From assembly GCA_035294085.1 (NCBI GenBank), contig DATGLP010000002.1:30061-94060 (forward strand): a stretch of 64,000 bases of DNA. Reading direction: 5' to 3'. Positions within the stretch are counted from its first letter, which is position 1, and every line of letters begins with the position of its first letter. Shown one piece after another: positions 49,947-63,708 of the stretch. Made by a program: the position numbers and the translations under genes. This DNA is from Acidimicrobiales bacterium (GTDB lineage: Bacteria > Actinomycetota > Acidimicrobiia > Acidimicrobiales > Bog-793). The notes under the pieces are model-generated. The model was not told where the DNA came from, ran no database searches, and saw only the letters and a list, made by a program, of their open reading frames with translations.

Positions 49947-49950
<4 letters not shown>

Positions 49951-51446
49951 AGCTCGAGCGCAGCGGGCGCGCCGGCAGGCCGGCGCGCCCCGCGCTCGAG
50001 CGCGGTGAGCACCGCCGCCGCGGCGGCGACGGCGGCGAGGAAGAAGGCGGCGGCGCTGAAGCCGCTCGGGACGTGCGCCGTCCCCGTCGCACCCGCCAGC
50101 GTGTACACGAGGCCCGTGAGGGCGAGGCCGAGCGCGGTGCCGGTCCCGCGCGACATGTTGAGGACCCCGCTCGCCACGCCTGCCTGCACCTTGGGCGCCG
50201 AGGCCATGACGGAGGCCGAGTTCGGCGCGATGAACAGGCCAGCGCCCACCCCGAGGAGGGCGAGGGCGGCGACGAGGGGCCCGGTGGCCGGGCGCGTGAG
50301 GCCGACGACGGCGAGCACGGCGGCTGAGATCGCCATGCCGCTCACGGTGAGCGGTCGAGGTCCGACGCGGTCCGCGAGACGGCCGGCGAACGGCGCCGTC
50401 AGCCCGAGCGCGAGGGGCAGCGCGGCGAGCTCGAGGCCGGTACCGGCAGGGGACAGGTGCCGGCCGTGCTCGAGGAAGAAGGGGATGACGAAGAGCACGC
50501 CGAAGAGGACGACGAAGGCGAGCACGCCGCCGGCGATGCCGATGCTGAATGCAGGCCGCTCGAAGAGCGTGAGGTCGAGGAGCGGGTCGCGCGCGCTCCG
50601 CTCCCGGCGGACGAAGGCGATCGCGGCCGCCACCGCCGTGACGAGGAGCACGAGGATTGCCGGCGAGGCCCAGCCCCACTCGTCGCCGTAGGAGACGGCG
50701 AGGAGCAGCGCGGCGGTCGCCGGCACGAAGAGCACGAGGCCGAGCCAGTCGAACCGGGCGCTGGCCTGGAGGTGGCGGCTGCGCGGCAGGAGGAAGCGGG
50801 AGGCGACGATCGCCACGATGCCGACCGGCACGTTGACGGAGAAGATGAGCCGCCACCCCCCGGCGGCGAGGAGCGCGCCCCCGACCGCCGGACCGAGAGC
50901 AAGGCCGAGCGCCTGCGCGGCGCCCTGCACGCCGATGCCTCGGCCGAGCGACTCCTTGGGGAGCGCGAGGTAGATGATGGCGACGCTGTTCGCCTGCAGC
51001 ATCGCGGCGCCGAGCGCCTGGAGGACGCGGAAGAGGTCGAGGCTGAGCAGGCTCGGCGCGAGGGCGCACAGCCCCGAGCCGAGCGTGAAGACGACGAAGC
51101 CGTAGCTGTAGAGGAGCTTGCGTCCGACCGTGTCGGCGACGCGCCCGACGGCCGTGACCATCGTCACGAGCACGAGGAGGTAGCTGAGGCCGACCCAGGT
51201 GACGGCGCCGACGCTCGCGTCGAAGGCGCGCTGGAGGCTCGGTAGGGCGACGGTCACGATGCTCGCGTCGAGCTGGCCCATGAAGGCGCCGATGCAGACC
51301 GTCCCGAGGGCGAACAGGTGGGCCTTGGGGTGCCGCCGGAGCCACTCGGGGCGTCCGGGTTCGCGCAGCAGGGCCGACAGCCCGCGCGCGCGACGCGCCG
51401 ACACCTCGCCTGGCGGTTCGTCCTCCACCTCGAGGTGCTCCAGCAC
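49947..51446 (-). CDS. MFS transporter, DHA2 (EmrB/QacA, 14-TM) family
   Basis: ..[23 protein letters not shown].., ..[12 protein letters not shown] (motif A), 14 hydrophobic segments. GGGAGGA SD upstream of GTG 51446. Its stop shares the CTAG tetranucleotide with the rpoC stop. Confidence 0.85.
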
Positions 51447-51502
51447 GCCCCATCCTCCCTCCCCGAAATGGAGAAGTCAAAGAGGTAGGATTGCACACGT
51501 AG

Positions 51503-51518
51503 ATAAGCGATCACTTAT
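51503..51518. promoter_or_regulatory. LysR-box-like dyad ATAAG-N6-CTTAT in the MFS/LysR divergent region
   Basis: ATAAGCGATCACTTAT. The right arm overlaps the LysR ATG (51517). It lies in the only clearly AT-enriched stretch of the 70-nt intergenic region. The geometry is T-N12-A rather than the canonical T-N11-A. Confidence 0.35.
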
Positions 51519-52437
51519 GGACATCCGGCGACTCACCATCTTCCTCGCCGTGGTCGACGAGGGTGGCTTCACCGCGGCCGCCGCGGCGCTCGGGATGTCG
51601 CAGCCCGCCGTGTCCCAGGCGGTGCGCGAGCTCGAGCGCGAGCTGTCGACCGAGCTCTTCCACCGCCTCGGGCGCGGCGTCCGACTCACGCCCGCCGGGG
51701 AGGCGCTCGTCGCGCCGGCGCGGCGCGCGCTGCGCGACCTGGCGGCCGGGCGGGCAGCCGTCGACGAGGTCGTCGGCGGGCGCGCCGGCCGCCTCGACCT
51801 CGCCTGCCTGCCCACGCTCGCCGTCGACCCCGTCGCACCGCTCGTCGGTGCCTTCCGCCGGTCGTTCCCGGAGGTCACCGTCGTGCTCGCCGCGCCGGAG
51901 GACGCCGCGGAGCTCGCCGAGCTCGTCCGCTCGGGGCGTTGCGAGGTGGGGATCACCGAGGCCGAGGCGGCCGCCGGCCTCGTCGCCCACGGGCTCGCGG
52001 CCCAGGACTTCCTCGTGGCCGCGCCGCCCGGCGCGCCGCTCGCCTCCCCGGTCGCGCTGGCCGGGCTCGCCGGGCGCCCCCTCGTGGCCGCGCCGCCCGG
52101 CTCCTCGACGCGCCGCCTCGTCGACGAGGCCTTCGCTCGCGCGGGCGTCCGACCGTCCATCGCCGTCGAGGCGGCCCAGCGCGAGGCGCTGCTGCCGCTC
52201 ATCGCCGCGGGCGCCGGCACGGGGGTGCTGCCGCGGCCGCTCGCCGAGGTCGCCGCGCGTCTCGGCTGCGTCGTGGCGACGCCGGACCCCCCGATCGTGC
52301 GGCGCGTCGCCCTCGTGCAGCGAGACGCCCCGCTCACCCCCGCGGCCCGCCGGTTCCTGGAGCTCGCCCTCGGGCGCCTGCCCGCCTCGGCGACCGCTCG
52401 CCGGCGAGCGCAGCGGTTCGGGGAGCCGGGTCCCTAA
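51517..52437 (+). CDS. LysR-family transcriptional regulator
   Basis: MDIRRLTIFLAVVDEGGFTAAAAALGMSQPAVSQAVRELERELSTELFHRLGRGVRLTPAG.. (canonical LysR wHTH) plus a substrate-binding domain. Confidence 0.92.
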   Translation: MDIRRLTIFLAVVDEGGFTAAAAALGMSQPAVSQAVRELERELSTELFHRLGRGVRLTPAGEALVAPARRALRDLAAGRAAVDEVVGGRAGRLDLACLPTLAVDPVAPLVGAFRRSFPEVTVVLAAPEDAAELAELVRSGRCEVGITEAEAAAGLVAHGLAAQDFLVAAPPGAPLASPVALAGLAGRPLVAAPPGSSTRRLVDEAFARAGVRPSIAVEAAQREALLPLIAAGAGTGVLPRPLAEVAARLGCVVATPDPPIVRRVALVQRDAPLTPAARRFLELALGRLPASATARRRAQRFGEPGP

Positions 52438-52700: not shown

Positions 52701-53411
52701 GTGATGCAGCTGATCGGTGCGGGACTGCCGAGGACGGCGACGCTGTCGCAGAAGATCGCCCTCGAGATGCTCGGGCTCAGGCCCTGCTACCACATGGTCG
52801 ACGTGCTCGCTGACCTCGGCAGGGCGCGGCGGTGGACCGAGCTGCTCGAGGGCGGCGGAGGCTGGGACGAGGTCTTCGCCGGCTACGAGGCGACGGTCGA
52901 CTGGCCGGGCGCCTTCTTCTACCGAGAGCTCATCGAGGTCTACCCGGACGCGAAGGTGCTCCTCAGCGTGCGCGACGGCGCCGCGTGGGAGCGCAGCATG
53001 CTCGACACCATCTGGGGCGTCCTCTACGGCGACAGCCTCATGCGCGACCTCTCGTCGGCGCGCGCCCGGGTGGACGCGGCCTGGCGCGACTACCTCGAGC
53101 TCATGGAGCGGATGTGGCAGAAGAGCGGGCTGCTCGGCTGCGAGGACGGTAGCGGCACCGGCTCGATGGCACGCGCCATGGAGCGCTACAACGCCGAGGT
53201 GCGCGCGAGCGTCCCGGCGGACCGGCTCCTCGTGTGGTCGGTGGCCGACGGCTGGGCCCCGCTTTGCGAGTTCCTCGAGGTCCCCGTGCCCGACTCCCCC
53301 TTCCCCCGGGTGAACGACAGCGCGGCCTTCGCCGACCGGATCATCGACTCGTCCCTCGCGCTCCTCTGCGACTGGCGACTCCCCGACGGGCGGGCCGCCG
53401 CTACGGCGTGA
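52701..53411 (+). CDS. Cytoplasmic sulfotransferase-family protein (Sulfotransfer_4-like)
   Basis: N-terminal ..IGAGLPRTATLS.. (5'-PSB P-loop-like motif G-x-P-R-T-G/A-T), ..VLLSVRD.., ..ERYNAEVRASVPADRLLVW.., ..PFPRVND... No signal peptide or TM. GGAG lies 6 nt before ATG 52704 (GTG 52701 is the alternative). Confidence 0.7.
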   Translation: MMQLIGAGLPRTATLSQKIALEMLGLRPCYHMVDVLADLGRARRWTELLEGGGGWDEVFAGYEATVDWPGAFFYRELIEVYPDAKVLLSVRDGAAWERSMLDTIWGVLYGDSLMRDLSSARARVDAAWRDYLELMERMWQKSGLLGCEDGSGTGSMARAMERYNAEVRASVPADRLLVWSVADGWAPLCEFLEVPVPDSPFPRVNDSAAFADRIIDSSLALLCDWRLPDGRAAATA

Positions 53412-56401
53412 GCGCGGGCGCCGCCGCGCTCGCGCCCGCCGTCCCGGAGGAGGTGCCGCCGTCCGCCCGCCACCTCGGCGGGCGGACGGCGTGGCTCCTC
53501 GCCCTGTGCTGCGTCGCGCAGTTCATGGTCATCTTGGACCTGAGCATCGTGAACGTGGCGCTCCCCTCGATCCAGGCGGGGCTCGCCTTCTCCTCGGCGG
53601 ACCTGCAGTGGGTCGTGGACGCGTACGCGATCGTGTTCGCGGGGTTCCTCATGGTGGGCGGCCGAGCCGCCGACCACTTCGGGCAGCGCAGAACGCTCGT
53701 CGCCGCGCTCGGGCTCTTCGCGTTCACCTCGCTCGCCGGGGGGCTGGCTCCCGACGGGGACGTCCTCATCGTCGCCCGCGGCGCGCAGGGCCTCGCCGGC
53801 GCGCTCATGGCCGCGGCCTCCCTCGCCGTCATCACGTCGTCGTTCGCGGCTGGACCGGCGCGCAACCGGGCCATCGCCCTGTGGGGGGCGATGAACGGCG
53901 CCGGCGGGGCGGCCGGGACGCTCCTCGGCGGGCTGCTCACCGAGGGCCTCGGCTGGCGCTGGGTGCTCCTCATCAACCCGCCGATCGGCGTGGCCGCCGC
54001 CGTCCTCGCCGTGCGCCTCGTCGTCGACCGCCGCGGCGAGAGCCGGCGGGGCTTCGACCTCGCCGGCGCGCTCAGCCTCACCGGTGGCCTCTGCCTGCTC
54101 GTGCTCGGGATCGTGAACGCGACGAGCGAGCACCTGACCGCCCCGAGCGCCCTCGCGCCGATCCTCGCCGGCGCCGCCCTCCTCGTCGCCTTCGTGCTCG
54201 TGGAGCTGCACGTCGCGACCGCGCCGATCGTCCCGCTGCGGCGCATCGGCGGGCCGCTCGCCGGCGCGAACGCGGTCGTGGCGCTGTTCAGCGCGGCGCT
54301 CTTCCCGATGTGGTACGTGAGCTCGCTCTACCTCCAGCAGGTCCTCGGCCTCTCGCCGCTCGCCGCGGGCCTCGCCTTCCTGCCGATGGCGCTCGTCATC
54401 ATGCTCGCCGCCCGGGGGGCCGGCTCGCTCGTCGGCCGCTTCGGGGTCCGGGCGGTCCTCTCGGGCGGGCTGGCGATGATGTGCGGCGGCATGCTGCTGC
54501 TCGCCCGCATCGAGCCGAGCGGGAGCGCCCTCGGCTACGTCGTGCTGCCCGGCGTGCTCACGGCCGCCGGGATCGGCCTCGCGGTCGTCCCCTCGACGAT
54601 CGCTGCCACCCAGAGCGCCGGCCGCGAGCTCGCCGGGCTCGCGAGCGGTCTCGTCAACACGGCGCGCCAGGCGGGTGGCGGCCTCGGCCTCGCGCTCCTC
54701 GCCTCGCTCGCGACCGTCGTCACCACCTCGGAGATCGGCCGCAACCGCCCCGTCGACGTGGCGCTGACCGACGGCTTCCGGCTCGCCTTCCTCGTCGGCG
54801 CCGCCCTGGTCGCCCTCGCCCTCGTGGCGACCCTCGCGCTCGTGGCGCGCCCGACGGCGGCCGACCCGGGCGCGGGCGGGACCAGGTCCCGGTCGGGAAG
54901 GGCGCGCCTTGGCCTGCCCGGCGCCGTGGCGGTGCTGCTCGCCGGCTTCGCTGGCCTCGACTTCGGCGTCGCCGGCGGGAGCGGGGCGCCGATCGGCGCC
55001 TACTCGCTCGCCGGTTCCCGCAGCTTCGTGTCGGCCCCGAGCCTGCACCCGCCGCGCCTCACGGTGGTGCGCAGCTCGCTGCCGCCCGCCCCCGCCGACA
55101 TCATGCTCGCCAGCTTCTACGACCTCACGAGCCCGCCGATGGATGGCCAGAGCGGCCCGCTCATCGTGAACAGCCGGCTCCAGCTCGTCTGGTTCAAGCA
55201 GGTCCCTCGCGACGTCGTGGCGTCGAACCTGAGCGAGCAGACCTACGACGGCGAGCCCGTCCTCGCCTGGTGGCAGGGGCGCGTCACCGACACGGGCGCG
55301 ACCGAGAGCGGCGAGGACGTCGTCGTCGACCGCCACTACCGGGTCGTCGCGACCCTGCGCGGGGCAGACGGCTGGATCATCTCCATGCACTCGCTCGTGA
55401 TCGTCGGGCACGACGCCTGGGTGACGGCGAACCGGGACGTCCCCTACGACCTCTACCGCTACGGCGGCACCGAGCGCGGGGCGCTCACCGACTCGGCCGT
55501 GCAGGAGTACGACCTGCGCACGGGCCGGCTGCTGTACACCTGGGACGCGCTCGACCACGTCCCGCTCTCCGACTCCTACGCCAACCCGCCGCGCAACGGC
55601 TTCCCGTGGGACGCCTACCACGTGAACTCGGCGGAGGTCCTGCCGGGGAACCGGCTCCTCGTCTCGATGCGCAACACCTGGGCCGCGTACCTCGTCGACG
55701 CGTCGACGGGCCGGGTGCTGTGGACGCTCGGCGGCAAGCACTCGACGTTCCGGTTCGGTCCCGGCGCCTCCTTCGCCTGGCAGCACGACGTCATGCTGCG
55801 GCGGGGGTCGCTCGTGACCATGTTCGACGACGAGTGCTGCCAGATCAGCGGCGCCGGCACCTACCTCGCGCCCCGCGCCCCGTCACGGGGGCTCGAGCTC
55901 CGGCTGGACCTGGCGACGAGGCGCGCGACCCTCGTGCGCCAGTACGGCCCCGGCACCTACTCGGCCGCCTACATGGGCAGCCTCGACCCCCTGCCCGGCG
56001 GCGACGTCCTCGTGGGGTGGGGCGCGGTCCCGCACATCGCCGAGTACACGGCGCAGGGCCGGCTCGTCTTCGACGCGACGCTGCCCGGCCCCGACCTCAG
56101 CTACCGCGCCACGCCGCTCGAGCACTGGCGCGGCGAGCCGCTCTCGCCGCCCGCCGGCGCGGCGCGCCGGCGCGGGCGCGGCTCGGTCGTCTACGCGAGC
56201 TGGAACGGCGCCACCGAGGTTGCCGCGTGGCGGGTGCTCGCCGGCCGCAGCGCCGCGTCGCTCGTCGCGGTGGCGAGGCGGGCCCGCTCGGGCTTCGAGA
56301 CGGCGGTGCCGCTGCGGCGCTCGTACCCCGTCTACGAGGTCGAGGCCCTCGACGCGCACGGCCGGGTCCTCGGGACCTCGGCGCCGTTCGGGGCGCGCTG
56401 A
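53408..56401 (+). CDS. Fusion protein: DHA2-type MFS transporter (14 TM) + extra TM helix + arylsulfotransferase (ASST)-like domain
   Basis: GTG 53408 overlaps the sulfotransferase TGA (GTGA). The MFS part has ..QFMVILDLSIVNVALPSIQ.., ..GGRAADHFGQRR.. and 14 helices up to ~54850. The linker RSRSGRARLGLPGAVAVLLAGFAGLDFGVAG is a 15th helix. The C-terminal ~450 aa are colinear with the next ASST gene (..WWQGRV.., ..FPWDAYHVNS.., ..FAWQHD.., ..VYASWNGATEVAAW..). One uninterrupted frame. Confidence 0.8.
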   Translation: MSAGAAALAPAVPEEVPPSARHLGGRTAWLLALCCVAQFMVILDLSIVNVALPSIQAGLAFSSADLQWVVDAYAIVFAGFLMVGGRAADHFGQRRTLVAALGLFAFTSLAGGLAPDGDVLIVARGAQGLAGALMAAASLAVITSSFAAGPARNRAIALWGAMNGAGGAAGTLLGGLLTEGLGWRWVLLINPPIGVAAAVLAVRLVVDRRGESRRGFDLAGALSLTGGLCLLVLGIVNATSEHLTAPSALAPILAGAALLVAFVLVELHVATAPIVPLRRIGGPLAGANAVVALFSAALFPMWYVSSLYLQQVLGLSPLAAGLAFLPMALVIMLAARGAGSLVGRFGVRAVLSGGLAMMCGGMLLLARIEPSGSALGYVVLPGVLTAAGIGLAVVPSTIAATQSAGRELAGLASGLVNTARQAGGGLGLALLASLATVVTTSEIGRNRPVDVALTDGFRLAFLVGAALVALALVATLALVARPTAADPGAGGTRSRSGRARLGLPGAVAVLLAGFAGLDFGVAGGSGAPIGAYSLAGSRSFVSAPSLHPPRLTVVRSSLPPAPADIMLASFYDLTSPPMDGQSGPLIVNSRLQLVWFKQVPRDVVASNLSEQTYDGEPVLAWWQGRVTDTGATESGEDVVVDRHYRVVATLRGADGWIISMHSLVIVGHDAWVTANRDVPYDLYRYGGTERGALTDSAVQEYDLRTGRLLYTWDALDHVPLSDSYANPPRNGFPWDAYHVNSAEVLPGNRLLVSMRNTWAAYLVDASTGRVLWTLGGKHSTFRFGPGASFAWQHDVMLRRGSLVTMFDDECCQISGAGTYLAPRAPSRGLELRLDLATRRATLVRQYGPGTYSAAYMGSLDPLPGGDVLVGWGAVPHIAEYTAQGRLVFDATLPGPDLSYRATPLEHWRGEPLSPPAGAARRRGRGSVVYASWNGATEVAAWRVLAGRSAASLVAVARRARSGFETAVPLRRSYPVYEVEALDAHGRVLGTSAPFGAR

Positions 56402-56670
56402 TGGCACCGGCCGGGCGCGCCTCGAGCGTCGCCGACCGTCGCGCGCGCCGGCGTCCGTCGCCACCCGTGGCCGGACCGGCCGGCCGGAGCGTGGGGGGCG
56501 CCAGGGCGGCGCGGGTCGGCACCGGGCGCCCGCGCGCTCGCGCGCTGCGACGCGCCGCGGTCGCGCTGGCGCTCGCCGCCACGGCGTTCGCCGCCGCAGC
56601 CTGCGGCTCGGGCGGCCATCCGACGGGCACGACGACGACCACGGCGAGCACGCGTGGCTACGGCTACTAG
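56401..56670 (+). CDS. Small putative lipoprotein
   Basis: ATG 56401 in a TGATG junction with the fusion gene. Arg-rich n-region, h-region AVALALAATAFAAAAC with lipobox-like A-A-A-C, then a short Gly/Thr-rich mature part. High GC3. Confidence 0.35.
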   Translation: MAPAGRASSVADRRARRRPSPPVAGPAGRSVGGARAARVGTGRPRARALRRAAVALALAATAFAAAACGSGGHPTGTTTTTASTRGYGY

Positions 56671-56745
56671 CACCGTCGTGGTCGCGACCCCGCCGGCCGG
56701 GCGCGCGCTCGCGGCCGACTCGGCGCTGCCCGGGGCGGTGCGGCG

Positions 56746-58290
56746 GTGATCCCCTCCGAGGGATCGGCCTCGGCGAGGGGCTCGGGCGGCGGGCGCGTCC
56801 TGAGCCGCCGGCAGCTCCTCGCCTCGGCCGCGGGGGGCCTCGTCGGGCTCGTCGCGGCCGGCGTCGTCGGCTACGAGTGGCCGCACGCCGCCGGCCCGGG
56901 CGCGTCGCAGTCGGGCGCCGAGGAGGCGTCCGGCGCCGTCGACTCCTTCGTCAGCCGGCCGGACCTGCGCCCGCCGCGGGTGCGCGTCCAGCGCCTCGGC
57001 CCGGTCGCCGACCCGGGGCGCCGCATCTTCCTCGCGCTGCGCTACGCGCCGGGGATGTCGGGCCAGCAGGGGCTCGCCATCGTGGACTACGCCGGGCGCC
57101 TCGTGTGGTTCCGCCCTGTCGCGGGCGCCGACCCCTTCGACTGCGACGCCCAGCGCTACCGCGGCCAGCCGGTGCTCACGTGGTGGCAGGGCACGGTCGT
57201 CGCCGGGCACGGCGCGGGCGTCGGCGAGATGGCCGACGCCTCCTACCGCCGCCTCGCCACGATCCGCGCCGGCGACGGCCTCGCGGCGGACCTGCACGAG
57301 CTCAACCTCACCGCGCGCGGCACCGCCCTCGTGACCGCCTACGAGACGGTGACGGCGGACCTCTCGCGCCTGGGTGGATCCCGGCGCGCGGCCGTCCTCG
57401 CCGGCCACGCCCAGGAGATCGACCTCGCCACGGGCGCCGTGCTCTTCGACTGGGACAGCCTGCGCCACGTCGGCGTCGAGGAGAGCTACCTGCCGCTGCC
57501 GAGTGGCGCGAGCGTGCCCTACGACTACTTCCACATCAACTCGGTCGCCGAGACCCCCGACGGCAACCTCCTCGTCTCGGCGCGCAACACCTGGGCGCTG
57601 TACAAGGTCGACCGGTCGAGCGGCGAGGTGCTCTGGCGGCTGAACGGGAAGCGGTCCGACTTCAGCGTCGCGAAGCAGGCTCGCTTCTACTGGCAGCACG
57701 ACGCCCGCATGCCCGATCCGGCGACGCTCACCGTCTTCGACGACGGGGCGTCCCCGCCGGAGGAGCGGCAGTCGAGGGCCCTCCTGCTCGACGTGGACGC
57801 GCGGGCGATGCACGTTCGCCTGCGACGCGCCTACCTCCACCCGGCTCGGTTCCTCGCGGCGAACCAGGGGAGCATGCAGCTGCTGCCGGGCGGGCACGTC
57901 TTCGTCGGCTGGGGCAACCAGCCCTACTTCTCCGAGTTCGCACCCGACGGCGCGCTCGTCCTCGACGGCGAGCTGCCGCTCGGCGTGCGCTCGTACCGCG
58001 CGTTCAGCCACCCGTGGGTCGGCCGTCCTCTCGAGCCCCCCGCCGTCGCGCTGCGGGCGAACCCCGCGGGCGGCACGACCGTCTACGCCAGCTGGAACGG
58101 CGCGACGCAGGTCGCCACGTGGCTCGTCCTCGCTGGACCCAGCGCGTCCTCGCTCGCCCCGGTCGGCTCCCAGCCCTGGTCGGGGTTCGAGACTGCGATC
58201 GCCGTCGCGTCGAGCGGTCCGTACTTCGCGGTCGTGGCGCTCGACGCCTCGGGACGCGAGCTGCGCCGCTCCGGGATCGTGCGCCTCTGA
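56746..58290 (+). CDS. Secreted arylsulfotransferase (ASST)-family protein with twin-arginine signal
   Basis: ..GRVLSRRQLLASAAGGLVGLVAAGVVG.. (Tat-type S-R-R-x-L-L), ..TWWQGTV.., ..PYDYFHINSVAETPDGNLLVSARN.., ..FYWQHDARM.., ..VYASWNGATQVATW... Confidence 0.75.
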   Translation: MIPSEGSASARGSGGGRVLSRRQLLASAAGGLVGLVAAGVVGYEWPHAAGPGASQSGAEEASGAVDSFVSRPDLRPPRVRVQRLGPVADPGRRIFLALRYAPGMSGQQGLAIVDYAGRLVWFRPVAGADPFDCDAQRYRGQPVLTWWQGTVVAGHGAGVGEMADASYRRLATIRAGDGLAADLHELNLTARGTALVTAYETVTADLSRLGGSRRAAVLAGHAQEIDLATGAVLFDWDSLRHVGVEESYLPLPSGASVPYDYFHINSVAETPDGNLLVSARNTWALYKVDRSSGEVLWRLNGKRSDFSVAKQARFYWQHDARMPDPATLTVFDDGASPPEERQSRALLLDVDARAMHVRLRRAYLHPARFLAANQGSMQLLPGGHVFVGWGNQPYFSEFAPDGALVLDGELPLGVRSYRAFSHPWVGRPLEPPAVALRANPAGGTTVYASWNGATQVATWLVLAGPSASSLAPVGSQPWSGFETAIAVASSGPYFAVVALDASGRELRRSGIVRL

Positions 58291-58330
58291 GGGCGCGCCG
58301 TGACGGCGGGCGAGCCAGTATGGAGCGGCG

Positions 58331-59146
58331 ATGGCACCGCGGGGCTGCATCACGTTGCTCACCGACTACGGCCTCACCGGTGGCTTCGTCGGGGCGCTGC
58401 ACGCCGTCGCCCAGAAGCTGGCGCCCGGGGTGACGGTCGTCGACCTCGACCACGCGATCCCGGCAGGCGACGTCCGCCTCGGTGCGCTCCGCCTCGAGCG
58501 GCTGGTCCCCCTCCTGCCCCCCGGGGTCCACGTCGGCGTCGTCGACCCGGGCGTCGGGGGCGGTCGGCGCGCCGTCGCGCTGCAGGCCGGCGAGGACCAC
58601 GTCTTCGTCGGGCCCGACAACGGGCTGCTCGTGTGGGCGGCCGAGGCGCTGTCTCCGGCACCGAGCCTCGTCGTCCTCGACCGGGAGGAGTACTTCCTCG
58701 AGCGGCGGTCGAGGACGTTCGACGGCCGGGACGTCTTCGTCCCCGTCGCCGCCCACCTCGCGAGGGGCTGCTCGCTCGCCGACGTCGGCTCGCCCGCCGA
58801 CCCCGGGACGCTCGAGCGCTGCCGACGCCCGGCGCCTCGGCGCCTCGGCGAGGCCGCGTGGGAGCTCGAGGTCCTCCAGGTGGACGGCTTCGGCAACGTC
58901 CAGTTCAGCGGCGACGCGGCGCACGTCCGACTCCTCGGGCTCGAGCCGGGCGATCCCGTCGTCGTCGAGGGGGGCGGCGTGCAGCTCGTCGCCACCTTCG
59001 CCGAGACCTTCAGCGACGTCGGGCGCGGCGCGCCGGTCGTCCTCGTCGACAGCGACGGGCAGCTCTCGCTCGCGCTGAACGCGGGCCGGGCCGACGAGGT
59101 GCTCCGGGCACCTCTCGGCGCGACCGTCGTGCTCCGGCGACCCTGA
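58331..59146 (+). CDS. SAM hydroxide adenosyltransferase / SAM-dependent halogenase family protein (DUF62)
   Basis: ..ITLLTDYGLTGGFVGAL.., ..HVGVVDPGVGGGRRAV.., ..VGPDNGLL.., ..TFDGRDVFVPVAAHLA.., ..VDGFGNV... Colinear with archaeal/bacterial DUF62 proteins as I recall them. Confidence 0.8.
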   Translation: MAPRGCITLLTDYGLTGGFVGALHAVAQKLAPGVTVVDLDHAIPAGDVRLGALRLERLVPLLPPGVHVGVVDPGVGGGRRAVALQAGEDHVFVGPDNGLLVWAAEALSPAPSLVVLDREEYFLERRSRTFDGRDVFVPVAAHLARGCSLADVGSPADPGTLERCRRPAPRRLGEAAWELEVLQVDGFGNVQFSGDAAHVRLLGLEPGDPVVVEGGGVQLVATFAETFSDVGRGAPVVLVDSDGQLSLALNAGRADEVLRAPLGATVVLRRP

Positions 59147-59381
59147 CGCCGGACGGCGCCGAGGCCGCCGCCTGCCGGGTCGCGCCGGGCGCGGGCTCCT
59201 CGAGGGCGCACCAGGCTCGCTGACCTGCGCCGCGCCGGCCGAACGTGGTGGCCCTGCGGCTGCCGGTCGGAACCCGGCGTCCCGGCGGCGCGAGCCTCGG
59301 CGGTTAGCATGGCCCGCGCCGTGCGGGGCAGGCCTGAGGGCACCGGTCCCGTCGTCCGGACGGGCAGGAACGGGAGCAGCG

Positions 59382-60371
59382 GTGGGCGTCGTGGAGGTCT
59401 CGGTCGCGATCGACGACTACGAGCACGTGCGCGCCCTCGCCGACGGGGACGTCCGCGTCCCCGGCGCCACCTTCACCTTCCACCGCCTGCCGACCCCCTC
59501 GGAGATCTTCCACCGGCAGTTCCGCTTCGGCGAGTGGGACGTCTCGGAGATGTCCCTCGCCCTCTACTGCGGCATGCGCTCGGCGGGCGACGAGCGTTTC
59601 GTCGCCATCCCGGTCTTTCCGCTGCGCAGGTTCCGCCACTCCTGCGTCTTCGTCGCCGCCAGCTCGCCGCTCCGGCGCCTCGAGGACCTCGCCGGCAGGC
59701 GCGTCGGGGTGCCCGAGTGGGGCCAGACCGCGGGTGTCTGGGTGCGGGGGATCCTCGAGGACGACCACGGCGTCGGCCTCGGCGACGTCGAGTGGGTCCA
59801 GGGCGGCGTCGCCGAGGTGGGGCGTCCCGAGCACCTCCACCTCGCGCTGCCGCCCGGCGTGCGCCTCGGGCGCGTGGCCGACGCGCCGCTTATCGACAAG
59901 CTCCTCGCCGGCGAGCTCGACGCCATCGTCTCGGCGCTGTTCCCCCAGGAGCTCCTCGCGTCCGGTCGCTGCCGGCCGCTCCTCGCCGACTGGCGCGCCG
60001 CCGAGCTCGACTACTACGACCGGACGGGGATCGTCCCGATCATGCACCTCGTCGTCGTGCGCCGCGAGGTCCACGAGGCGCACCGCTGGCTCGCGAAGGA
60101 GCTCGTCAAGGCCTTCGACGCAGCGAAGGCGCGCGCCCTCGAGCGCCTCTGCTCGGCGCAGGCCTCGCTCTATCCCGTCCCGCACCTCGCCGAGGTCGCG
60201 AGCGAGCTCGTCGGGCGCTTCGGGGGCGACCCGTGGCCCTACGGGCTCGAGGCGAACCGGCACGCGCTCGCCACCTTCCTCCGCTACGCGGCCGCGCAGG
60301 GCCTGCTCGAGCGGGAGCTCGGACCCGAGGAGCTCTTCGCTCCCTCCTCGATCGACGTCTTCCACGCCTGA
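59382..60371 (+). CDS. 4,5-dihydroxyphthalate-decarboxylase-like (PhtD family, periplasmic-binding-protein fold) protein
   Basis: ..DYEHVRALADGDVRV.., ..EIFHRQFRFGEWDVSEMSLALY.., ..FVAIPVFPLRRFRHSCVFV.., ..TGIVPIMHLVVVRREV.., ..WPYGLEANRHALATFLRYAAAQGL..PEELFAP... Family call from remembered motifs only. Confidence 0.55.
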   Translation: MGVVEVSVAIDDYEHVRALADGDVRVPGATFTFHRLPTPSEIFHRQFRFGEWDVSEMSLALYCGMRSAGDERFVAIPVFPLRRFRHSCVFVAASSPLRRLEDLAGRRVGVPEWGQTAGVWVRGILEDDHGVGLGDVEWVQGGVAEVGRPEHLHLALPPGVRLGRVADAPLIDKLLAGELDAIVSALFPQELLASGRCRPLLADWRAAELDYYDRTGIVPIMHLVVVRREVHEAHRWLAKELVKAFDAAKARALERLCSAQASLYPVPHLAEVASELVGRFGGDPWPYGLEANRHALATFLRYAAAQGLLERELGPEELFAPSSIDVFHA

Positions 60372-60555: not shown

Positions 60556-63500
60556 ATGCGCTGCGCGTCGGGCGCCCTCGCGGCGCGCGAGGTGGGCTGG
60601 CGGCGCCCTCGGGGTGGTGCCGTCGGGCCCGCGCGCCGGTCGGGGCTCCTGGCGCTCGCCGGCCTGGCGGGGCTGGTCGGCGCCGTGGTCTCCTCGGCGA
60701 GCGGGGCCGAGGCGCTCGCGGCGCCGCGGCCGCGTGCGGCCGTTCCGACCGGCTGGCGGGTCGGGATGGCGCCGACGGTCGGCTTCGTGCGCGCCCATCG
60801 AGGGCTGTTCCCGAGCTCGACCGCCTCGGCGCCGACGTCCGGGGTCTCCGACCTCACGTACGGCGGGGGCCAGGTGATCAGCGGGGCGCCTCGCGTCTAC
60901 CTCGACTTCTGGGGGAGCCAGTGGGGGAGCGAGACCACCGACGCGGCGGGCGACGCGACCTTCTCGGGGGACCCCGACGCGCTCGCGCCGACCCTCCAGG
61001 AGCTCTTCAGGGGCCTCGGCAGCGGGGGAGAGACCTGGAGCGGCACGACCACCGAGTACTGCGAGACCGGGTCGATCGTCGTCGAGACCGGCGCGACGAG
61101 CTGCCCGTCGGGGGCGACGAGCGTCGGCTACCCTGCCGGCGGCGCGCTCGCGGGGGTCTGGGAGGACGCGGCCTCGCCCGCGCCCGCGTCGGCGACGCCC
61201 AGCCAGATCGCGCAGGAGGCGATCGCCGCGGCCGCGCACTTCGGGAACGGGTCGCCGAGCGCCAACGCGAGCGCGATCTACGTCGTCGTCTCGCCGACCG
61301 GGACGAACCCCGGCGGCGGCTTCGGCACGACCTACTGCGCCTGGCACGACGACACCGCCGACGGCTACTCGGTGCAGCCGAGCTACCCCGGCGAGGACCT
61401 GCCCTTCGTCAACCTCCCCTACGTCCCCGACGCCGGCGCGGACTGCGGCGCGTACTCGGTGGACGCGGGGAGCGCCGGCCTCCTCGACGGCCTCACCGAG
61501 GTCGCGGTGCACGAGTACGCCGAGACGCTCACGGATCCCTTCCCGCCCACGGGCTGGATCGACCCGAACGGCTACGAGATCGCCGACAAGTGCGCCTACC
61601 TCCCCTTCGGCGAGCCCAGCGGCGTGCAGGACGTCGCCCTGTCGACCGGCACCTTCGCCGTCCAGTCGCTGTGGTCGAACGGCCTCGGCCGCTGCGTCGT
61701 CGCTGCGCCGGTGCTCTCGGACGGCTCGCCGGATCCGGGCGTCGTCGACCTGTCGGCTCCTTCGAGCGAGACGACCGACGTGCACGACACCGCGCACGTC
61801 GCGCTCTCCGTCGACGACCCCGGCGAGACGGTCTCCTTCGGCGCTACCGGCCTGCCGCCGGGCCTCGAGATCGACCCCGCGACGGGGCTCGTCTCGGGCT
61901 CGCCGAGCGCGACCGGGACCTACTCGGTCACCGTCACGGCGAGCGACGCCGCGGGCAGGCAGGCGCGGGCGTTCTTCCCCTGGATGGTGCCCGGGACCGA
62001 CGACGTGCGCTTCGCGAGCGGGTACGCGCTCGAGACGAGCGTCCCCGGTCGAGCCGTCGACCTCGACGTCGCGGCGGCGTCGTCCTCGGCCGGGTTCCCC
62101 GTCTCCTACGAGGCGAGCGGGTTGCCGCCCGGGCTCTCGATGTCGTCCACGGGGGTCGTCTCGGGCTCGCCGAGCGCGACCGGGACCTTCGCCGTGTCGC
62201 TCGTGGCGACCGACGCCGCCGGCGCGAGCGCCGCGACGTCCCTCACCTGGAGGGTCCTGCCGGCGAGCGCGGTGGTCGACCTCGCGAGCCCCGCCCTCGC
62301 ATCGACGACGGTCGGCGGCCCGGTCGACCTCTCCCTCAGCGCGACCGACGCGGGCGTGGCGGTCGCGAGCTACGGCGCCACCGGCCTGCCGCCCGGGCTC
62401 GCGCTCGATCCCTCGACCGGCGTCATCTCGGGGGTGCCGACGGCCGCGGGGACCGACGCGGTCGTCCTCTCGGCGACGGGCGTGGACGGCTCCGTTGCGA
62501 GCCGGTCGCTCGCCTGGACGGTCGAGCCGGACGCCGTCGCGCTCTCGAGCCCCGGCGCCCAGCGCACGACGGTCTCCCAGGCCGTCGACCTTCCGCTCAG
62601 CGCCACGGACGCCGCCGGGTCGAGCCTGTCCTACGGCGCCACCGGCCTGCCGCCCGGGCTCGCGCTCGATCCCTCGACGGGCGTCATCTCCGGCGTGGCG
62701 ACGGTCGCGGGGACCTACGCCGTCACCGTCAGCGCGCGCGCGGCGACGGGCGCCTCGGCGAGCGCGACCTTCGACTGGCGCGTCCTGCCCGCCCCCACCC
62801 GGGCCGCGCCGCCGCCCGCCGCGGTCGGCCGTGCCCAGCTCGCGGCGCCTGCCTCCGGGGTCGTCCGGGCGGGCGGGACGGTCCGCCTCGTTCGCACCGT
62901 CACGCGCGGCCTGCGGGTGACGGTCACGGTGCCTCGCGGCGCGCTGGCGCCGGGCACGACGGTGAGCCTGTACCCGGTGGCGAGCGCTACCGGCCTGCGC
63001 GAGGCGGTCCGAAGCGGCCAGCGGCTCCTCGCGGGGTTCGCGCTCTCCTGGCGCGCCCCGACCGGCGGGGCGCCCGTGGCGAGGCTGCCGGTCGCAGTGG
63101 TGCTCGACGGGCGCGCGCTCGCCGCCGGGGACGCGCTCTACGAGGTCACCTCGCCGGGTCGCCGGTCGCGCCCGACAGCGACCGGGCGCGCCGTCGGGCG
63201 CCTGGAGCTCTCGCGTCCGGGCGTGGTCGTCCTCGTCGCGACGCCCGGCGTCGCCGTCGTCGGCGACGGACGCCTCGTGCTCGACGGTCGCGGGGTCGAG
63301 GTCCTCCTCGCGTGCTCGCGCAGCGCCTGCCGGGGGGTCGCGACGCTCGAGCAGGTCCGTGTCGTGGCGGCGCGCGAGCGCGTCGTGAGGGACGTGCAGG
63401 TCGGACGGCGCACGGTGCGGCGCACCGTGACGCAGGTCGCGCGCCGGCGGACGGTTGTCGTCCTCGCCCGCGCGCGCTGGTCCGCCCCGGCCGGCGCGGC

Positions 63501-63708
63501 GCGCCTCGTCGTCCTCGCGCTCGCCGCGCCAGGTCGGGCCGTGCTCGAGCCGCCCTCGCGGCCAGTCTCCGCCACGCTCGAGGTGACGGTGGCGGGCGGA
63601 ACCGGGCTCTCCCGGCGCGTCGTCGTCGTCCGAGGCGGCGAGCGGGCCCACCTGGCGGCGAGCCGGTCGTTCGGCGCCGGCCGGGCGCGAGGAGGCGCCG
63701 CTCGCTGA
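60556..63708 (+). CDS. Large secreted protein: signal peptide + unassigned ~370-aa N-domain + 4 He_PIG-type Ig repeats + Arg/Val-rich beta C-domain
   Basis: ATG 60556: ..ARRSGLLALAGLAGLVGAVVSSASGAEA (signal, possibly Tat). N-domain motifs: VYLDFWGSQWG, YCAWHDD, VHEYAETLTDP, DKCAY, SLWSN..RC. Four repeats of ..GATGLPPGLxxDPxTGxxSGxPxxxGTYxVTV... No LPxTG, no TM. An upstream in-frame ORF extension to 59734 is rejected because it overlaps the PhtD-like gene. Confidence 0.7.
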   Translation: MRCASGALAAREVGWRRPRGGAVGPARRSGLLALAGLAGLVGAVVSSASGAEALAAPRPRAAVPTGWRVGMAPTVGFVRAHRGLFPSSTASAPTSGVSDLTYGGGQVISGAPRVYLDFWGSQWGSETTDAAGDATFSGDPDALAPTLQELFRGLGSGGETWSGTTTEYCETGSIVVETGATSCPSGATSVGYPAGGALAGVWEDAASPAPASATPSQIAQEAIAAAAHFGNGSPSANASAIYVVVSPTGTNPGGGFGTTYCAWHDDTADGYSVQPSYPGEDLPFVNLPYVPDAGADCGAYSVDAGSAGLLDGLTEVAVHEYAETLTDPFPPTGWIDPNGYEIADKCAYLPFGEPSGVQDVALSTGTFAVQSLWSNGLGRCVVAAPVLSDGSPDPGVVDLSAPSSETTDVHDTAHVALSVDDPGETVSFGATGLPPGLEIDPATGLVSGSPSATGTYSVTVTASDAAGRQARAFFPWMVPGTDDVRFASGYALETSVPGRAVDLDVAAASSSAGFPVSYEASGLPPGLSMSSTGVVSGSPSATGTFAVSLVATDAAGASAATSLTWRVLPASAVVDLASPALASTTVGGPVDLSLSATDAGVAVASYGATGLPPGLALDPSTGVISGVPTAAGTDAVVLSATGVDGSVASRSLAWTVEPDAVALSSPGAQRTTVSQAVDLPLSATDAAGSSLSYGATGLPPGLALDPSTGVISGVATVAGTYAVTVSARAATGASASATFDWRVLPAPTRAAPPPAAVGRAQLAAPASGVVRAGGTVRLVRTVTRGLRVTVTVPRGALAPGTTVSLYPVASATGLREAVRSGQRLLAGFALSWRAPTGGAPVARLPVAVVLDGRALAAGDALYEVTSPGRRSRPTATGRAVGRLELSRPGVVVLVATPGVAVVGDGRLVLDGRGVEVLLACSRSACRGVATLEQVRVVAARERVVRDVQVGRRTVRRTVTQVARRRTVVVLARARWSAPAGAARLVVLALAAPGRAVLEPPSRPVSATLEVTVAGGTGLSRRVVVVRGGERAHLAASRSFGAGRARGGAAR
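61741..62790 (+). repeat. Four tandem ~87-89-codon He_PIG (putative Ig) domain repeats inside the secreted-protein gene
   Basis: Repeat cores: 61831-61990, 62100-62262, 62360-62530, 62625-62790. The DNA is near-identical between units 3 and 4 (62371-62430 vs 62632-62691, 1 mismatch in 60 nt). Units 1 and 2 share a 33-nt identical block (61889-61921 vs 62156-62188). Confidence 0.85.

Follow-up and report, generated by a model that had tools for sequence, protein, structure and literature searches.

To what does an extracytoplasmic arylsulfate sulfotransferase (ASST) pass its sulfuryl groups, and from where does it receive them? Genuine ASST donors are reportedly known essentially from the caprazamycin system alone, according to work from 2013. 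Most bacterial ASSTs have no identified natural acceptor and hence no assigned physiological role (2026 review, PMC13426309), and the only ASST route that has been worked out is that of the caprazamycin and liposidomycin-type antibiotic pathways. The question is raised by the 64-kb stretch of DNA analysed here (the window), in which a sulfotransferase gene is followed by two genes encoding ASST domains. An earlier note on this DNA proposed a relay, in which a PAPS-dependent sulfotransferase would sulfate a carrier in the cytoplasm, an MFS transporter would export it and external ASST domains would trans-sulfate an acceptor. We have followed up this proposal by profile searches, structure prediction and comparison of related loci.

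Organisation of the locus

The six genes described in the earlier note were found on one strand between 52701 and 60371, with all of the features given for them (Table 1). Reading of the sequence showed the gene calls to be correct, as were the GTGA overlap between the sulfotransferase stop and the fusion start (53408-53411), the TGATG overlap between the fusion stop and the lipoprotein start (56399-56403) and the gap of 263 nt between the LysR gene and the sulfotransferase gene. For the sulfotransferase, the ATG at 52704, chosen also by an independent gene caller, is the probable start codon, with the GTG at 52701 as the alternative. HMM searches against Pfam supported the sulfotransferase, MFS, ASST and SAM hydrolase assignments. 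For the PhtD-like gene the Pfam matches were weak, but the assignment was upheld by a match to PDB entry 9jp7, named '4,5-dihydroxyphthalate decarboxylase' (E 2.1e-67).

The flanks of the locus contain rpoB/rpoC, the MFS/LysR pair, the SAM hydrolase and decarboxylase genes and a gene for a He_PIG-repeat protein, and no natural-product cluster was seen among these flanking genes. No PAPS-pathway or sulfatase genes were found in the 64 kb. A scan for promoters and terminators at 51.4-61 kb found none, the G+C content of 75% making such a scan uninformative.

Table 1. Features of the locus, numbered from the first nucleotide of the window
Feature	Position	Strand	Remarks
Second DHA2 MFS gene, divergent from LysR	49947-51446	-	73-nt intergenic region to LysR
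LysR-type regulator	51520-52437	+	HTH_1 + LysR_substrate
Predicted Cpz8-type PAPS-dependent sulfotransferase (Sulfotransfer_4)	52704-53411	+	235 aa; PF17784
Fusion protein, transporter half: DHA2-type MFS core (14 TMs) and 15th TM	53408-54970	+	MFS_1
Fusion protein, predicted extracytoplasmic Cpz4-like ASST domain	55025-56401	+	Arylsulfotran_2 + Arylsulfotrans; stop codon 56399-56401
Predicted small lipoprotein, 89-aa precursor	56401-56670	+	Hydrophobic stretch and lipobox-like AAAC/GS
Free Tat-signal ASST paralogue, Cpz4 homologue	56746-58290	+	Arylsulfotran_2; SRRQLL
SAM hydroxide adenosyltransferase / (R)-SAM hydrolase-like gene	58331-59146	+	SAM_HAT_N + SAM_HAT_C
4,5-dihydroxyphthalate decarboxylase-like (PhtD-like) gene	59382-60371	+	PDB 9jp7

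The sulfotransferase and the two ASST domains

The sulfotransferase matched the Pfam family Sulfotransfer_4 (PF17784, E 8.9e-63) and, among PDB sequences, Cpz8 (9kf1/9kf2, E 6.9e-43) and SgdX2 (E 9e-42); the names of the 9kf1, 9kf2, 9kf4 and 9kf6 entries used here were taken from their Foldseek descriptions. Its predicted structure (pLDDT 83.8) was aligned by Foldseek to the Cpz8-PAP complex with a TM score of 0.84-0.88 at 41% identity, and resembled tyrosylprotein sulfotransferases (TPSTs) weakly (TM about 0.35). The GLPRTAT motif on which the earlier note relied was confirmed in the sequence, and both PRTxT (aa 9-13) and R90-x7-S98 were invariant among the aligned sulfotransferases. The enzyme is of the Sulfotransfer_4 family and carries its PAPS-binding motifs, as Cpz8 does.

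In the fusion protein, MFS_1 was matched with E 4e-44 (151 bits, cut-off 33.4), and the ASST half was recognised by both Arylsulfotran_2 (E 6.6e-38) and Arylsulfotrans (30.6 bits, cut-off 24.2). Positions 5-409 of the TIGR00711 EmrB model aligned to the MFS half with 192.6 bits, below the cut-off of 230.2. The fusion reported in the earlier note is real, while its count of 14 TMs has to be amended: hydropathy and inspection, on which the topology and lipobox calls of this study are based, gave 15 hydrophobic segments, fourteen in the core and an extra one at aa 501-521, preceded by a loop rich in Lys and Arg. Following an odd number of segments, the fused ASST domain is predicted to be outside the cell. 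The direction of transport is taken from membership of the MFS family alone. No earlier description of such a fusion, or of the small lipoprotein encoded after it, was found in the literature searched.

The free ASST matched Arylsulfotran_2 (E 6e-55) and the sequence of Cpz4 (9kf4/9kf6, E 8e-113), and a profile built from the fusion and free ASST domains matched Cpz4 with E 4e-151. Its structural model, of moderate quality (pLDDT 62.6, with the first, N-terminal, 180 residues poor), was aligned to Cpz4 with a TM score of 0.76-0.79 at 45% identity (Foldseek). The protein has a twin-arginine motif, SRRQLL, with a hydrophobic stretch after it, in agreement with the Tat signal noted before. In a profile alignment to 3ELQ, H263, N265, R280 and Q317-H318 of the free ASST corresponded to H356, N358, R374 and Q435-H436 of E. 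coli AssT. The equivalents of AssT H356, N358, R374 and H436 were invariant in 14 ASST domains, and the same active-site columns (H-x-N, R and WQH) were invariant in 15 fusions, so that the catalytic histidine H436 and the sulfuryl-coordinating H356, N358 and R374 all have their counterparts in these proteins. Judged by its sequence and model, the free ASST would be a PAPS-independent enzyme of the Cpz4 type. Up to five free ASST paralogues were seen in relatives.

A predicted small lipoprotein ending in tyrosine

The small lipoprotein which the earlier note placed after the fusion was recovered as an 89-aa ORF, called also by the independent gene caller on the source contig, with a hydrophobic stretch that ends in AAAC/GS. 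Its predicted mature part, CGSGGHPTGTTTTTASTRGYGY, has Gly-Tyr at the C-terminus. The conservation of this tyrosine is a new feature, missed in the earlier note. A short putative lipoprotein with a Ser-, Thr- or His-rich sequence and Gly/Ala-Tyr at its end was encoded at 41 of the 46 fusion loci, a tally to which the His-rich lipoproteins were added by direct inspection, making the Tyr terminus near-universal. By comparison, 175 of 29,423 background ORFs (0.6%) ended in Tyr, and among the 679 ORFs of at least 30 aa in the window the small lipoprotein was the only one to do so; in the MFS-only control loci none of 95 lipobox-like ORFs (0/95) ended in Tyr. The cleavage sites of the relatives' lipoproteins read AG/C, TG/C or SA/C. 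Searches of NCBIfam with the small lipoprotein returned sub-threshold matches to lipoprotein signal regions alone, 'invert_tail' among them. In three of the related loci (L094, L118 and L155), in which a complete fusion is not seen, the gene for the Tyr-terminated lipoprotein adjoins the sulfotransferase gene.

Known sulfotyrosine sites sit in an acidic context. The terminal Tyr of the lipoprotein is flanked by Gly/Ala and basic residues, and TPST-type action on an acidic Tyr motif was rejected because the Tyr is C-terminal in a non-acidic context and the fold likeness to TPSTs is weak. The lipoprotein may be a tethered phenolic acceptor or carrier of sulfate, and the phenol of its terminal Tyr is the most consistently co-encoded acceptor candidate.

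Conservation of the module

Comparison of about 130 related loci gave a four-gene core, consisting of the sulfotransferase, the MFS-ASST fusion, the small lipoprotein and the Tat-signal ASST, the order of which recurs in many unrelated contigs. The neighbourhood search proposed in the earlier note thus bore out its expectation, as the sulfotransferase and fusion genes are recurrent and often overlapping neighbours. The sulfotransferase gene lies immediately upstream of the fusion in L002, L003, L010, L088 and L089, and the overlap of stop and start seen in the window is also present in L088. When the search was started from the sulfotransferase, all three long contigs examined carried the fusion (3/3). 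Among metagenome loci anchored on the sulfotransferase, an MFS gene was directly downstream in 25 of the 62 that could be assessed, and all of these downstream MFS genes that extended far enough (18/18) were MFS-ASST fusions; neither ASST nor MFS was seen in 27 of the 62. In GTDB species representatives, mostly Solirubrobacterales, a sulfotransferase was found within 8 kb at 3 of 21 fusion loci. For fusion loci with no sulfotransferase nearby, either the enzyme would be encoded elsewhere or another donor would be used.

Fusion-like proteins were numerous, with 2,171 matches at E <= 1e-10, some of which may be due to the MFS or ASST half alone, and the full fusion architecture was found in more than 120 protein clusters. 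By these sequence comparisons the fusion module has a wide distribution, which takes in Solirubrobacterales, Acidimicrobiales and other soil Actinomycetota.

In some relatives, genes for PAPS synthesis and for PAP phosphatase were found inside or beside the cluster. In L086, genes for CysD, CysN/CysC and CysQ, all exceeding their NCBIfam cut-offs, lie between the sulfotransferase and the fusion, and a CysQ-like gene follows the fusion in L089. A sulfatase-like gene adjoins the module in L085.

The gene neighbourhoods differ from relative to relative. By tblastn, no homologue of the SAM hydrolase, the PhtD-like decarboxylase or LysR was found near the module in 83 + 80 related loci; the two weak LysR matches were both in MFS-only loci. 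The three genes were rejected as members of the module on this basis, and the SAM hydrolase and PhtD-like genes are, by sequence comparison, neighbours outside it. LysR is divergently paired with another MFS gene across a 73-nt intergenic gap and is probably not the regulator of the module. The suggestion in the earlier note that the decarboxylase could supply the phenolic carrier is left without comparative support, because no decarboxylase match was present in the 163 comparison loci. Neither the cluster nor the Pfam lists of related loci included a carrier-making enzyme, which in the caprazamycin system is Cpz6, a type III PKS; PKS genes were absent from the cluster and from the Pfam lists of nine related neighbourhoods.

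A proposed route and its alternatives

The best explanation for the module, and one we hold to be fairly probable, is a transmembrane version of the two-step sulfation of Cpz8/Cpz4 type. The relay logic of the earlier note is well supported because the sulfotransferase and ASST are homologous to the proven pair Cpz8 and Cpz4; the gene order, the PAPS genes of relatives and the predicted position of the ASST outside the cell also speak for it, and the part assigned to the decarboxylase is the one that did not stand. Against the explanation count the lack of a carrier-making enzyme in the cluster and the Pfam lists of related loci, the small share of GTDB fusion loci (3/21) with a sulfotransferase within 8 kb, the 27 of 62 metagenome loci with neither ASST nor MFS, and the score of the MFS half below the cut-off of the DHA2 subfamily model.

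In such a route, the cytoplasmic Sulfotransfer_4 enzyme would, as its homology suggests, transfer sulfate from PAPS to a carrier, a small phenolic or enolic molecule. The MFS half would carry the aryl sulfate out, which is consistent with the fusion and with the coupling of the genes. The 15th helix would hold the ASST on the outer face of the membrane, where, as the conserved residues suggest, the histidine of WQH (the equivalent of E. coli AssT His436) would take the sulfuryl group. This group could then be delivered to an extracytoplasmic acceptor, possibly the phenol of the C-terminal Tyr of the lipoprotein, held at the tip of a flexible Ser-, Thr- or His-rich stalk. The same acceptor may be used by the free, Tat-exported ASST, which may otherwise relay sulfate to further targets. 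Since Cpz4 and LipB sulfate sugar hydroxyls, the acceptor could also be a glycan and not tyrosine. A speculative extension, on the unlikely side in our opinion, is that the lipoprotein Tyr is a protein-borne sulfuryl carrier (a 'sulfo-carrier protein'), loaded by the fused ASST and unloaded by the free ASSTs onto different acceptors in the envelope or the surroundings, in the way that ACP or lipoyl domains act as swinging arms.

Another use for the same genes could be detoxification, with the sulfotransferase conjugating incoming toxic phenolics, for example compounds from lignin or humic material, the MFS expelling the conjugates, the ASSTs redistributing or salvaging the sulfuryl groups and the lipoprotein acting as an accessory or assembly factor. 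The origin of the loci in soil metagenomes would fit with this, as would the likeness of the MFS half to drug-efflux DHA2 pumps, which it resembles most, the sulfatase-like gene beside the module in L085, and the presence among the Sulfotransfer_4 relatives of the xenobiotic-activating oxamniquine sulfotransferase of Schistosoma. However, efflux alone has no need of a covalently fused, catalytically intact ASST or of several ASST paralogues, the finding of PAPS-synthesis genes within the cluster is better matched by a dedicated sulfate flux than by occasional detoxification, and the Tyr terminus of the lipoprotein would be left unexplained, so that we regard this explanation as quite unlikely.

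The lipoprotein could itself be the substrate of the sulfotransferase, which would sulfate its C-terminal Tyr in the cytoplasm in the manner of RaxST and RaxX; the tethered sulfotyrosine would then donate to the ASSTs, and the cargo of the MFS would be either the acceptor or an unrelated compound. We consider this very unlikely: the characterised close relatives (Cpz8, SgdX2 and the Schistosoma SULT) all act on small molecules, translational coupling of the sulfotransferase to the MFS suggests that its product is the cargo, and the Tyr lies between Gly/Ala and basic residues, not acidic ones. On its side are the absence of a conserved gene for a small-molecule carrier, the distant fold likeness to tyrosylprotein sulfotransferases and the three loci in which the lipoprotein and sulfotransferase genes are side by side with no complete fusion seen. 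It is highly improbable that the ASST-like propellers serve an envelope process as binding or scaffold modules, the Tyr tail being used as a signal for sorting, docking or regulation: all four residues that handle the sulfuryl group are unchanged in the fusion and the free paralogues alike, the proteins are close in identity to Cpz4, for which a reaction intermediate is among the deposited structures, and the genes are linked to a PAPS-dependent sulfotransferase and to CysDNC/CysQ. Such a role would be compatible with the frequency of Ser/Thr-rich stalk lipoproteins in envelopes, with the moderate model of the free ASST and with the fact that the fused ASST subfamily is known from sequence alone.

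If two-step sulfation across the membrane is what the module carries out, it would take the worked-out ASST route beyond antibiotic pathways, to a cell-surface system found widely among soil Actinomycetota. It would name a supply line, from PAPS through a Cpz8-like enzyme to a fused exporter, together with an acceptor candidate that can be synthesised, a peptide ending in Gly-Tyr. Confirmation would mean that bacteria sulfate protein tyrosines outside the cytoplasm or operate a sulfate shuttle, and would provide new PAPS-independent biocatalysts with known partners. Should the lipoprotein prove to be a sulfo-carrier, this would be the first natural donor-acceptor circuit for an entire class of ASSTs.

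Comparison with known sulfation systems

RaxST is a PAPS-dependent tyrosylprotein sulfotransferase, and the RaxX exporter is an ABC peptidase-transporter. In the RaxX/RaxST/RaxB system, as here, a small secreted ribosomal peptide with a possibly sulfated Tyr is encoded beside a sulfotransferase and an exporter. Unlike RaxX, the window peptide is a predicted lipoprotein whose conserved Tyr is strictly the last residue, and its sulfation is proposed to be extracytoplasmic and carried out by an ASST, whereas RaxST acts directly on the peptide.

SgdX2 of sungeidine biosynthesis (PDB 8Y9P), called an 'activating sulfotransferase' in the title of its publication, shares the Sulfotransfer_4 fold with the window enzyme (E 9e-42, TM 0.90). 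Its sulfate is reportedly installed as a leaving group within a single pathway, and neither an ASST nor an exporter is known to act with it.

AssT of E. coli CFT073 (3ELQ/3ETS) and the ASSTs of gut bacteria and Desulfitobacterium share the beta-propeller fold with the window ASSTs (Foldseek E 1.4e-8), which carry equivalents of AssT H356, N358, R374 and the catalytic H436 and are predicted to be extracytoplasmic, as AssT is. The PAPS-independent ping-pong transfer between phenols (PMC13426309) is presumably a further likeness. The identity is about 16%, and the best Pfam match of the window ASST is PF14269, not PF05935. Neither donor nor acceptor has been identified in nature for AssT-type enzymes (PMC13426309), whereas the gene context in the window proposes both.

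The closest parallel is the sulfation of caprazamycin (A-90289/liposidomycin) by Cpz6, Cpz8, Cpz4 and LipB, which has two enzyme families in common with the window. In this proven two-step pair, PAPS-dependent Cpz8 acts before PAPS-independent Cpz4, together with Cpz6 (PMC4257720, PMC6731281). The logic is also in common, in that a carrier is first sulfated at the expense of PAPS and then gives up its sulfate, through an ASST, to the final acceptor. The statement in the earlier note that no system with this logic had been described is refuted by this pathway, which has no export step (PMC4257720, PMC6731281). The type III PKS and antibiotic biosynthetic genes of the caprazamycin system were not seen in the window locus. 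In contrast to caprazamycin, one ASST of the window module forms a single protein with a putative MFS exporter and has a predicted position outside the membrane, the other has a Tat signal, and a Tyr-terminated lipoprotein is co-encoded. The caprazamycin genes are confined to a Streptomyces secondary-metabolite cluster, while the window module is spread over soil Actinomycetota. Taken with these differences, the sequence evidence makes it reasonably probable that the window module is a variant of Cpz8/Cpz4-type sulfation which is predicted to span the membrane.

Results

The module and its neighbours

The cluster region of the window (~75% G+C) carries six genes in a row on one strand, as the earlier note had read from the sequence alone, and this layout was borne out by Pfam, by the match of the last gene to a solved decarboxylase and by an independent gene caller, which made the same calls, the 89-aa open reading frame (ORF) included, on the public contig with the window sequence. 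Pfam matches supported the sulfotransferase, transporter, ASST and SAM hydrolase assignments, and the GTGA and TGATG overlaps and the 263 nt between the end of the upstream LysR gene and the cluster start are visible in the window sequence itself. The sulfotransferase start is probably the ATG at 52704.

Features of the window and of the comparison loci (L numbers; loci around homologues of the fusion or the sulfotransferase)
Feature	Locus	Position	Strand	Match or character
LysR gene and second DHA2-type MFS gene	window	49947-52437	minus (MFS)	MFS 499 aa, 30% identical to fused MFS
Sulfotransferase	window	52701/52704-53411	same as other five	Sulfotransfer_4, Pfam E 8.9e-63
Extra C-terminal helix of sulfotransferase	window	53316-53411		aa 206-235; helix 206-233 in model
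MFS-ASST fusion	window	53408-56401	same	single 997-aa protein; MFS_1 N-terminal, Arylsulfotran_2/Arylsulfotrans C-terminal (Pfam)
Vicinal Cys-Cys of fusion	window	55829-55834		aa 808-811, FDDxCCQ
Small ORF	window	56401-56670	same	89 aa; no family match
Free ASST	window	56746-58290	same	second Arylsulfotran_2 protein (Pfam)
SAM hydrolase	window	58331-59146	same	SAM_HAT_N, SAM_HAT_C (Pfam)
Decarboxylase-like gene	window	59382-60371	same	4,5-dihydroxyphthalate decarboxylase 9jp7, E 2.1e-67
Repeat ORF, tested from 60640	window	60640-63708		four He_PIG (putative Ig) repeats
Sulfatase-family gene	L085	12157-13602		directly after small lipoprotein gene
Sulfate-activation genes	L086	8816-12367		between sulfotransferase and fusion
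ORF called between sulfotransferase and fusion	L087	8724-9227		167 aa; no family match, odd composition
Larger tailed lipoprotein	L089	5243-5794		beside module
Larger tailed lipoprotein	L158	1654-2169	minus	beside module
Tandem Tyr-terminated lipoprotein genes	L105	7747-8345		three, after fusion
Tandem Tyr-terminated lipoprotein genes	L116	3950-4630		three, after fusion

The MFS-ASST fusion architecture is common. At E <= 1e-10, 2,171 proteins match the fusion, from sources that include Acidimicrobiales, Solirubrobacteraceae, Nocardiopsaceae and other Actinomycetota, and the best 120 of these 2,171 all have E = 0, about 1,000 aa and the same Pfam content, except for one entry lacking the weaker PF05935 (Arylsulfotrans) match. 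The sulfotransferase and the fusion recur as neighbours, in keeping with the grouping proposed earlier: the Sulfotransfer_4 gene directly precedes the fusion, in the same orientation, in five comparison loci (L002, L003, L010, L088 and L089) and is no more than 8 kb away in L011 and L019. Starting from the sulfotransferase, the fusion was present in 3/3 long contigs examined. Among the 62 sulfotransferase-anchored metagenome loci with enough downstream sequence, an MFS gene was directly downstream in 25, and an MFS-ASST fusion was found in 18/18 of those reaching far enough downstream; ten more of the 62 had ASST or MFS matches elsewhere in the locus and 27 had neither.

In most Solirubrobacterales species representatives there was no sulfotransferase within +/-8 kb of the fusion (present in 3/21), and one to five free ASST paralogues surround the fusion instead. 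Four whole loci of this kind (L006, L015, L018 and L020) have three to five such paralogues, 37-48% identical to the free ASST of the window, with one fusion, one lipoprotein gene and no sulfotransferase found within 8 kb. The ORF called between sulfotransferase and fusion in L087 is probably a spurious call in the intergenic spacer.

The SAM hydrolase and the decarboxylase, both counted into the cluster by the earlier note, and LysR are neighbours and not module members. The first two had no tblastn match in 83 plus 80 comparison loci, and LysR had none beside the module, its two weak matches both being in MFS-only loci. In the window, the LysR gene is divergent from the second DHA2 gene, 73 nt away. 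Divergence from an adjacent gene is the usual arrangement of a LysR regulator and its target, so LysR more likely controls that transporter. The second MFS gene stops right against the rpoC reading frame, which ends at 49950. Downstream of the cluster, the He_PIG-repeat ORF showed no association with the module in other loci compared.

A predicted lipoprotein ending in tyrosine

What had been described simply as a small lipoprotein has a feature that was overlooked, a C-terminal tyrosine. Counterparts of the 89-aa ORF occur nearly everywhere among the fusion loci, and the terminal tyrosine is what they have in common.

Predicted mature parts of the small lipoproteins
Locus	Predicted mature part
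window	CGSGGHPTGTTTTTASTRGYGY
L002	CGSSNSSGQTTTTTAPNGY
L003	CGPSHSGSNNNSHSHSKKEPNGY
L088	CGSGHSNGTTTTTTIPSGY
L085	CGPSSGSGGGGSSPSPSGQPGY
Solirubrobacterales loci (end)	...TTTTKHKSKPAY
L120	CGPSHHHKSGVGPGGY

A Tyr-terminated lipoprotein gene was found in 41/46 of all fusion loci, comprising 23/24 fusion-anchored loci (exception L014; L010 is cut and was left out of the count), 4/5 of L085-L089 (exception L087) and 14/17 metagenome loci with a complete fusion (exceptions L097, L098 and L129). The background of Tyr-ending ORFs is 0.6% (175/29,423 ORFs of at least 30 aa), none of 95 lipobox-like small ORFs from 58 MFS-only control loci ends in this way, and exactly 1/679 ORFs in the 64-kb window does so, namely the 89-aa lipoprotein ORF. 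The residue before the tyrosine is Gly or Ala in 46/55 cases. None of the curated families covers these lipoproteins; their matches, all under threshold, were to the signal regions of lipoproteins.

In the window, L002, L003, L085 and L088, the gene comes after the fusion in the same orientation, and in Solirubrobacterales it is divergent and directly upstream of the fusion. Versions of 100-270 aa, Thr/Pro-rich and ending alike, occur in L009, L012, L021, L037, L086 and L114. In L089 and L158 a Thr-rich tail ending GGY or GYGY is joined to a larger lipoprotein, that of L089 being a Lipoprotein_15 protein (Pfam), and larger tailed lipoproteins also adjoin the sulfotransferase in L094, L106, L142 and L147 (minus strand). 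The tails in these six loci read ...TTTTTAKSSYGGY, ...SGGYGY or ...TTTGVSCEPNC[DG]Y. As the same tail is found on larger lipoproteins, the Thr-rich stalk with its terminal tyrosine acts like a transferable C-terminal tag. The tandem copies of L105 and L116 resemble RiPP precursor arrays; they have very short mature parts with many His residues (e.g. CSSHHHHHHHHHRINGY, CGSHHHHHHKTFHPAGY and CGPSHHHHHKSHCCAGY), whose His runs point to metal binding.

The enzymes and the fusion

The closest solved relatives of the sulfotransferase are 9kf1/9kf2 (E 6.9e-43) and SgdX2, and those of the free ASST are 9kf4/9kf6 (E 8e-113). According to the Foldseek descriptions, these are proteins of caprazamycin synthesis from Streptomyces sp., the sulfotransferase Cpz8 alone (9kf1) and with PAP (9kf2), and the ASST Cpz4 and its reaction intermediate (9kf4/9kf6). 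The sulfotransferase model (pLDDT 83.8) superposed on Cpz8 with a TM of 0.84-0.88 at 41% identity, and the free ASST model (pLDDT 62.6) on Cpz4 with 0.76-0.79 at 45%, E. coli AssT being the next match. PRTxT (aa 9-13) and R90...S98 of the sulfotransferase are invariant among twenty close homologues, and the R-to-S spacing of eight is that of the canonical 3'-phosphate-binding motif. Fusion-associated sulfotransferases keep an extra C-terminal helix, with F209 and W224 invariant, that runs beyond the alignment end with the 212-aa Cpz8 and may serve as a docking site for the transporter.

When a profile built from 14 ASST domains was aligned to E. coli AssT, its FHINS...SaRNT fell on W354-A-H356-V-N358...R374 and its WQHD on Q435-H436. 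The corresponding residues, H263, N265, R280 and H318 of the free ASST, are the same in all 14 domains and also in 15 full-length fusions, and the residues aligned here are exactly the catalytic histidine and sulfuryl-coordinating set of AssT (2026 review, PMC13426309). A vicinal Cys-Cys is invariant in the ASST domain of 15/15 aligned fusions; the free ASST has FDDGASPP at this place.

Hydropathy gave the MFS core of the fusion the 14 segments expected of a DHA2 transporter, which agrees with the earlier count for the core, while the whole fusion has 15. The NCBIfam EmrB model aligned over positions 5-409 with a score under its cut-off. After the core, a loop with five Lys/Arg leads to the 15th segment (aa 501-521); two weak peaks beyond it (aa 657-673 and 938-954, KD 1.1-1.2) are read as propeller strands. 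With an odd number of segments, the ASST domain would lie across the membrane from the N-terminus, i.e. outside, a position suggested by hydropathy, with which the SRRQLL twin-arginine motif of the free ASST agrees.

Discussion

The best-supported reading, from homology to Cpz8/Cpz4, the fused domains, and the coupling and context of the genes, is a relay of the Cpz8/Cpz4 type stretched across the membrane, which is the logic that the earlier note had put forward. A small carrier would be sulfated in the cytoplasm by the PAPS-dependent enzyme, the MFS half of the fusion would export it, the histidine of the tethered ASST would capture the sulfuryl group and the group would then be delivered outside the cell. 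The strongest context evidence for a PAPS-using first step feeding the fusion is the complete PAPS-making and PAP-removing set of L086, in which CysD (509 bits), bifunctional CysN/CysC (1017 bits) and the PAP phosphatase CysQ (285 bits) all exceed curated NCBIfam cut-offs. A CysQ-like gene also follows the fusion in L089, and the window itself has no CysD, CysN/CysC or CysQ genes. The sulfatase-family product of L085, with arylsulfatase and choline-sulfatase matches well under cut-offs, may cleave sulfate off or return the carrier for reuse.

ASSTs act on phenols, and tyrosine has one as its side chain; the tethered C-terminal tyrosine of the lipoprotein is the leading candidate for acceptor or relay. 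Tyrosine-containing peptides are among the acceptors of gut ASSTs (PMC13426309). A glycan on the Thr-rich stalk could also be the acceptor, because Cpz4 and LipB sulfate sugar hydroxyls. Rival to the relay as a whole are a role in detoxification, direct cytoplasmic sulfation of the tyrosine on the lipoprotein precursor, and an ASST domain that is non-catalytic. The main gap of the relay model is the carrier, as caprazamycin has the type III PKS Cpz6 and no equivalent is present in the module.

The relay logic itself is not new. The earlier note knew of no such system, and two-step sulfation in caprazamycin biosynthesis, as recounted in PMC4257720 and PMC6731281, both citing 2013 primary work, is its precedent. 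In the literature searched and the curated family libraries, three things were undescribed: the covalent linkage of an ASST and a DHA2 exporter in one protein, where an extra helix would place the ASST outside, the Tyr-terminated lipoprotein partner, and the presence of the module outside antibiotic gene clusters across several actinobacterial classes. For an enzyme class of largely obscure physiology, the module provides a donor route and an acceptor that are concrete and open to testing. With Cpz8 and Cpz4 it shares the enzyme types and, on this reading, the logic of the relay, to which it adds the DHA2 exporter fusion and the Tyr-terminated lipoprotein.
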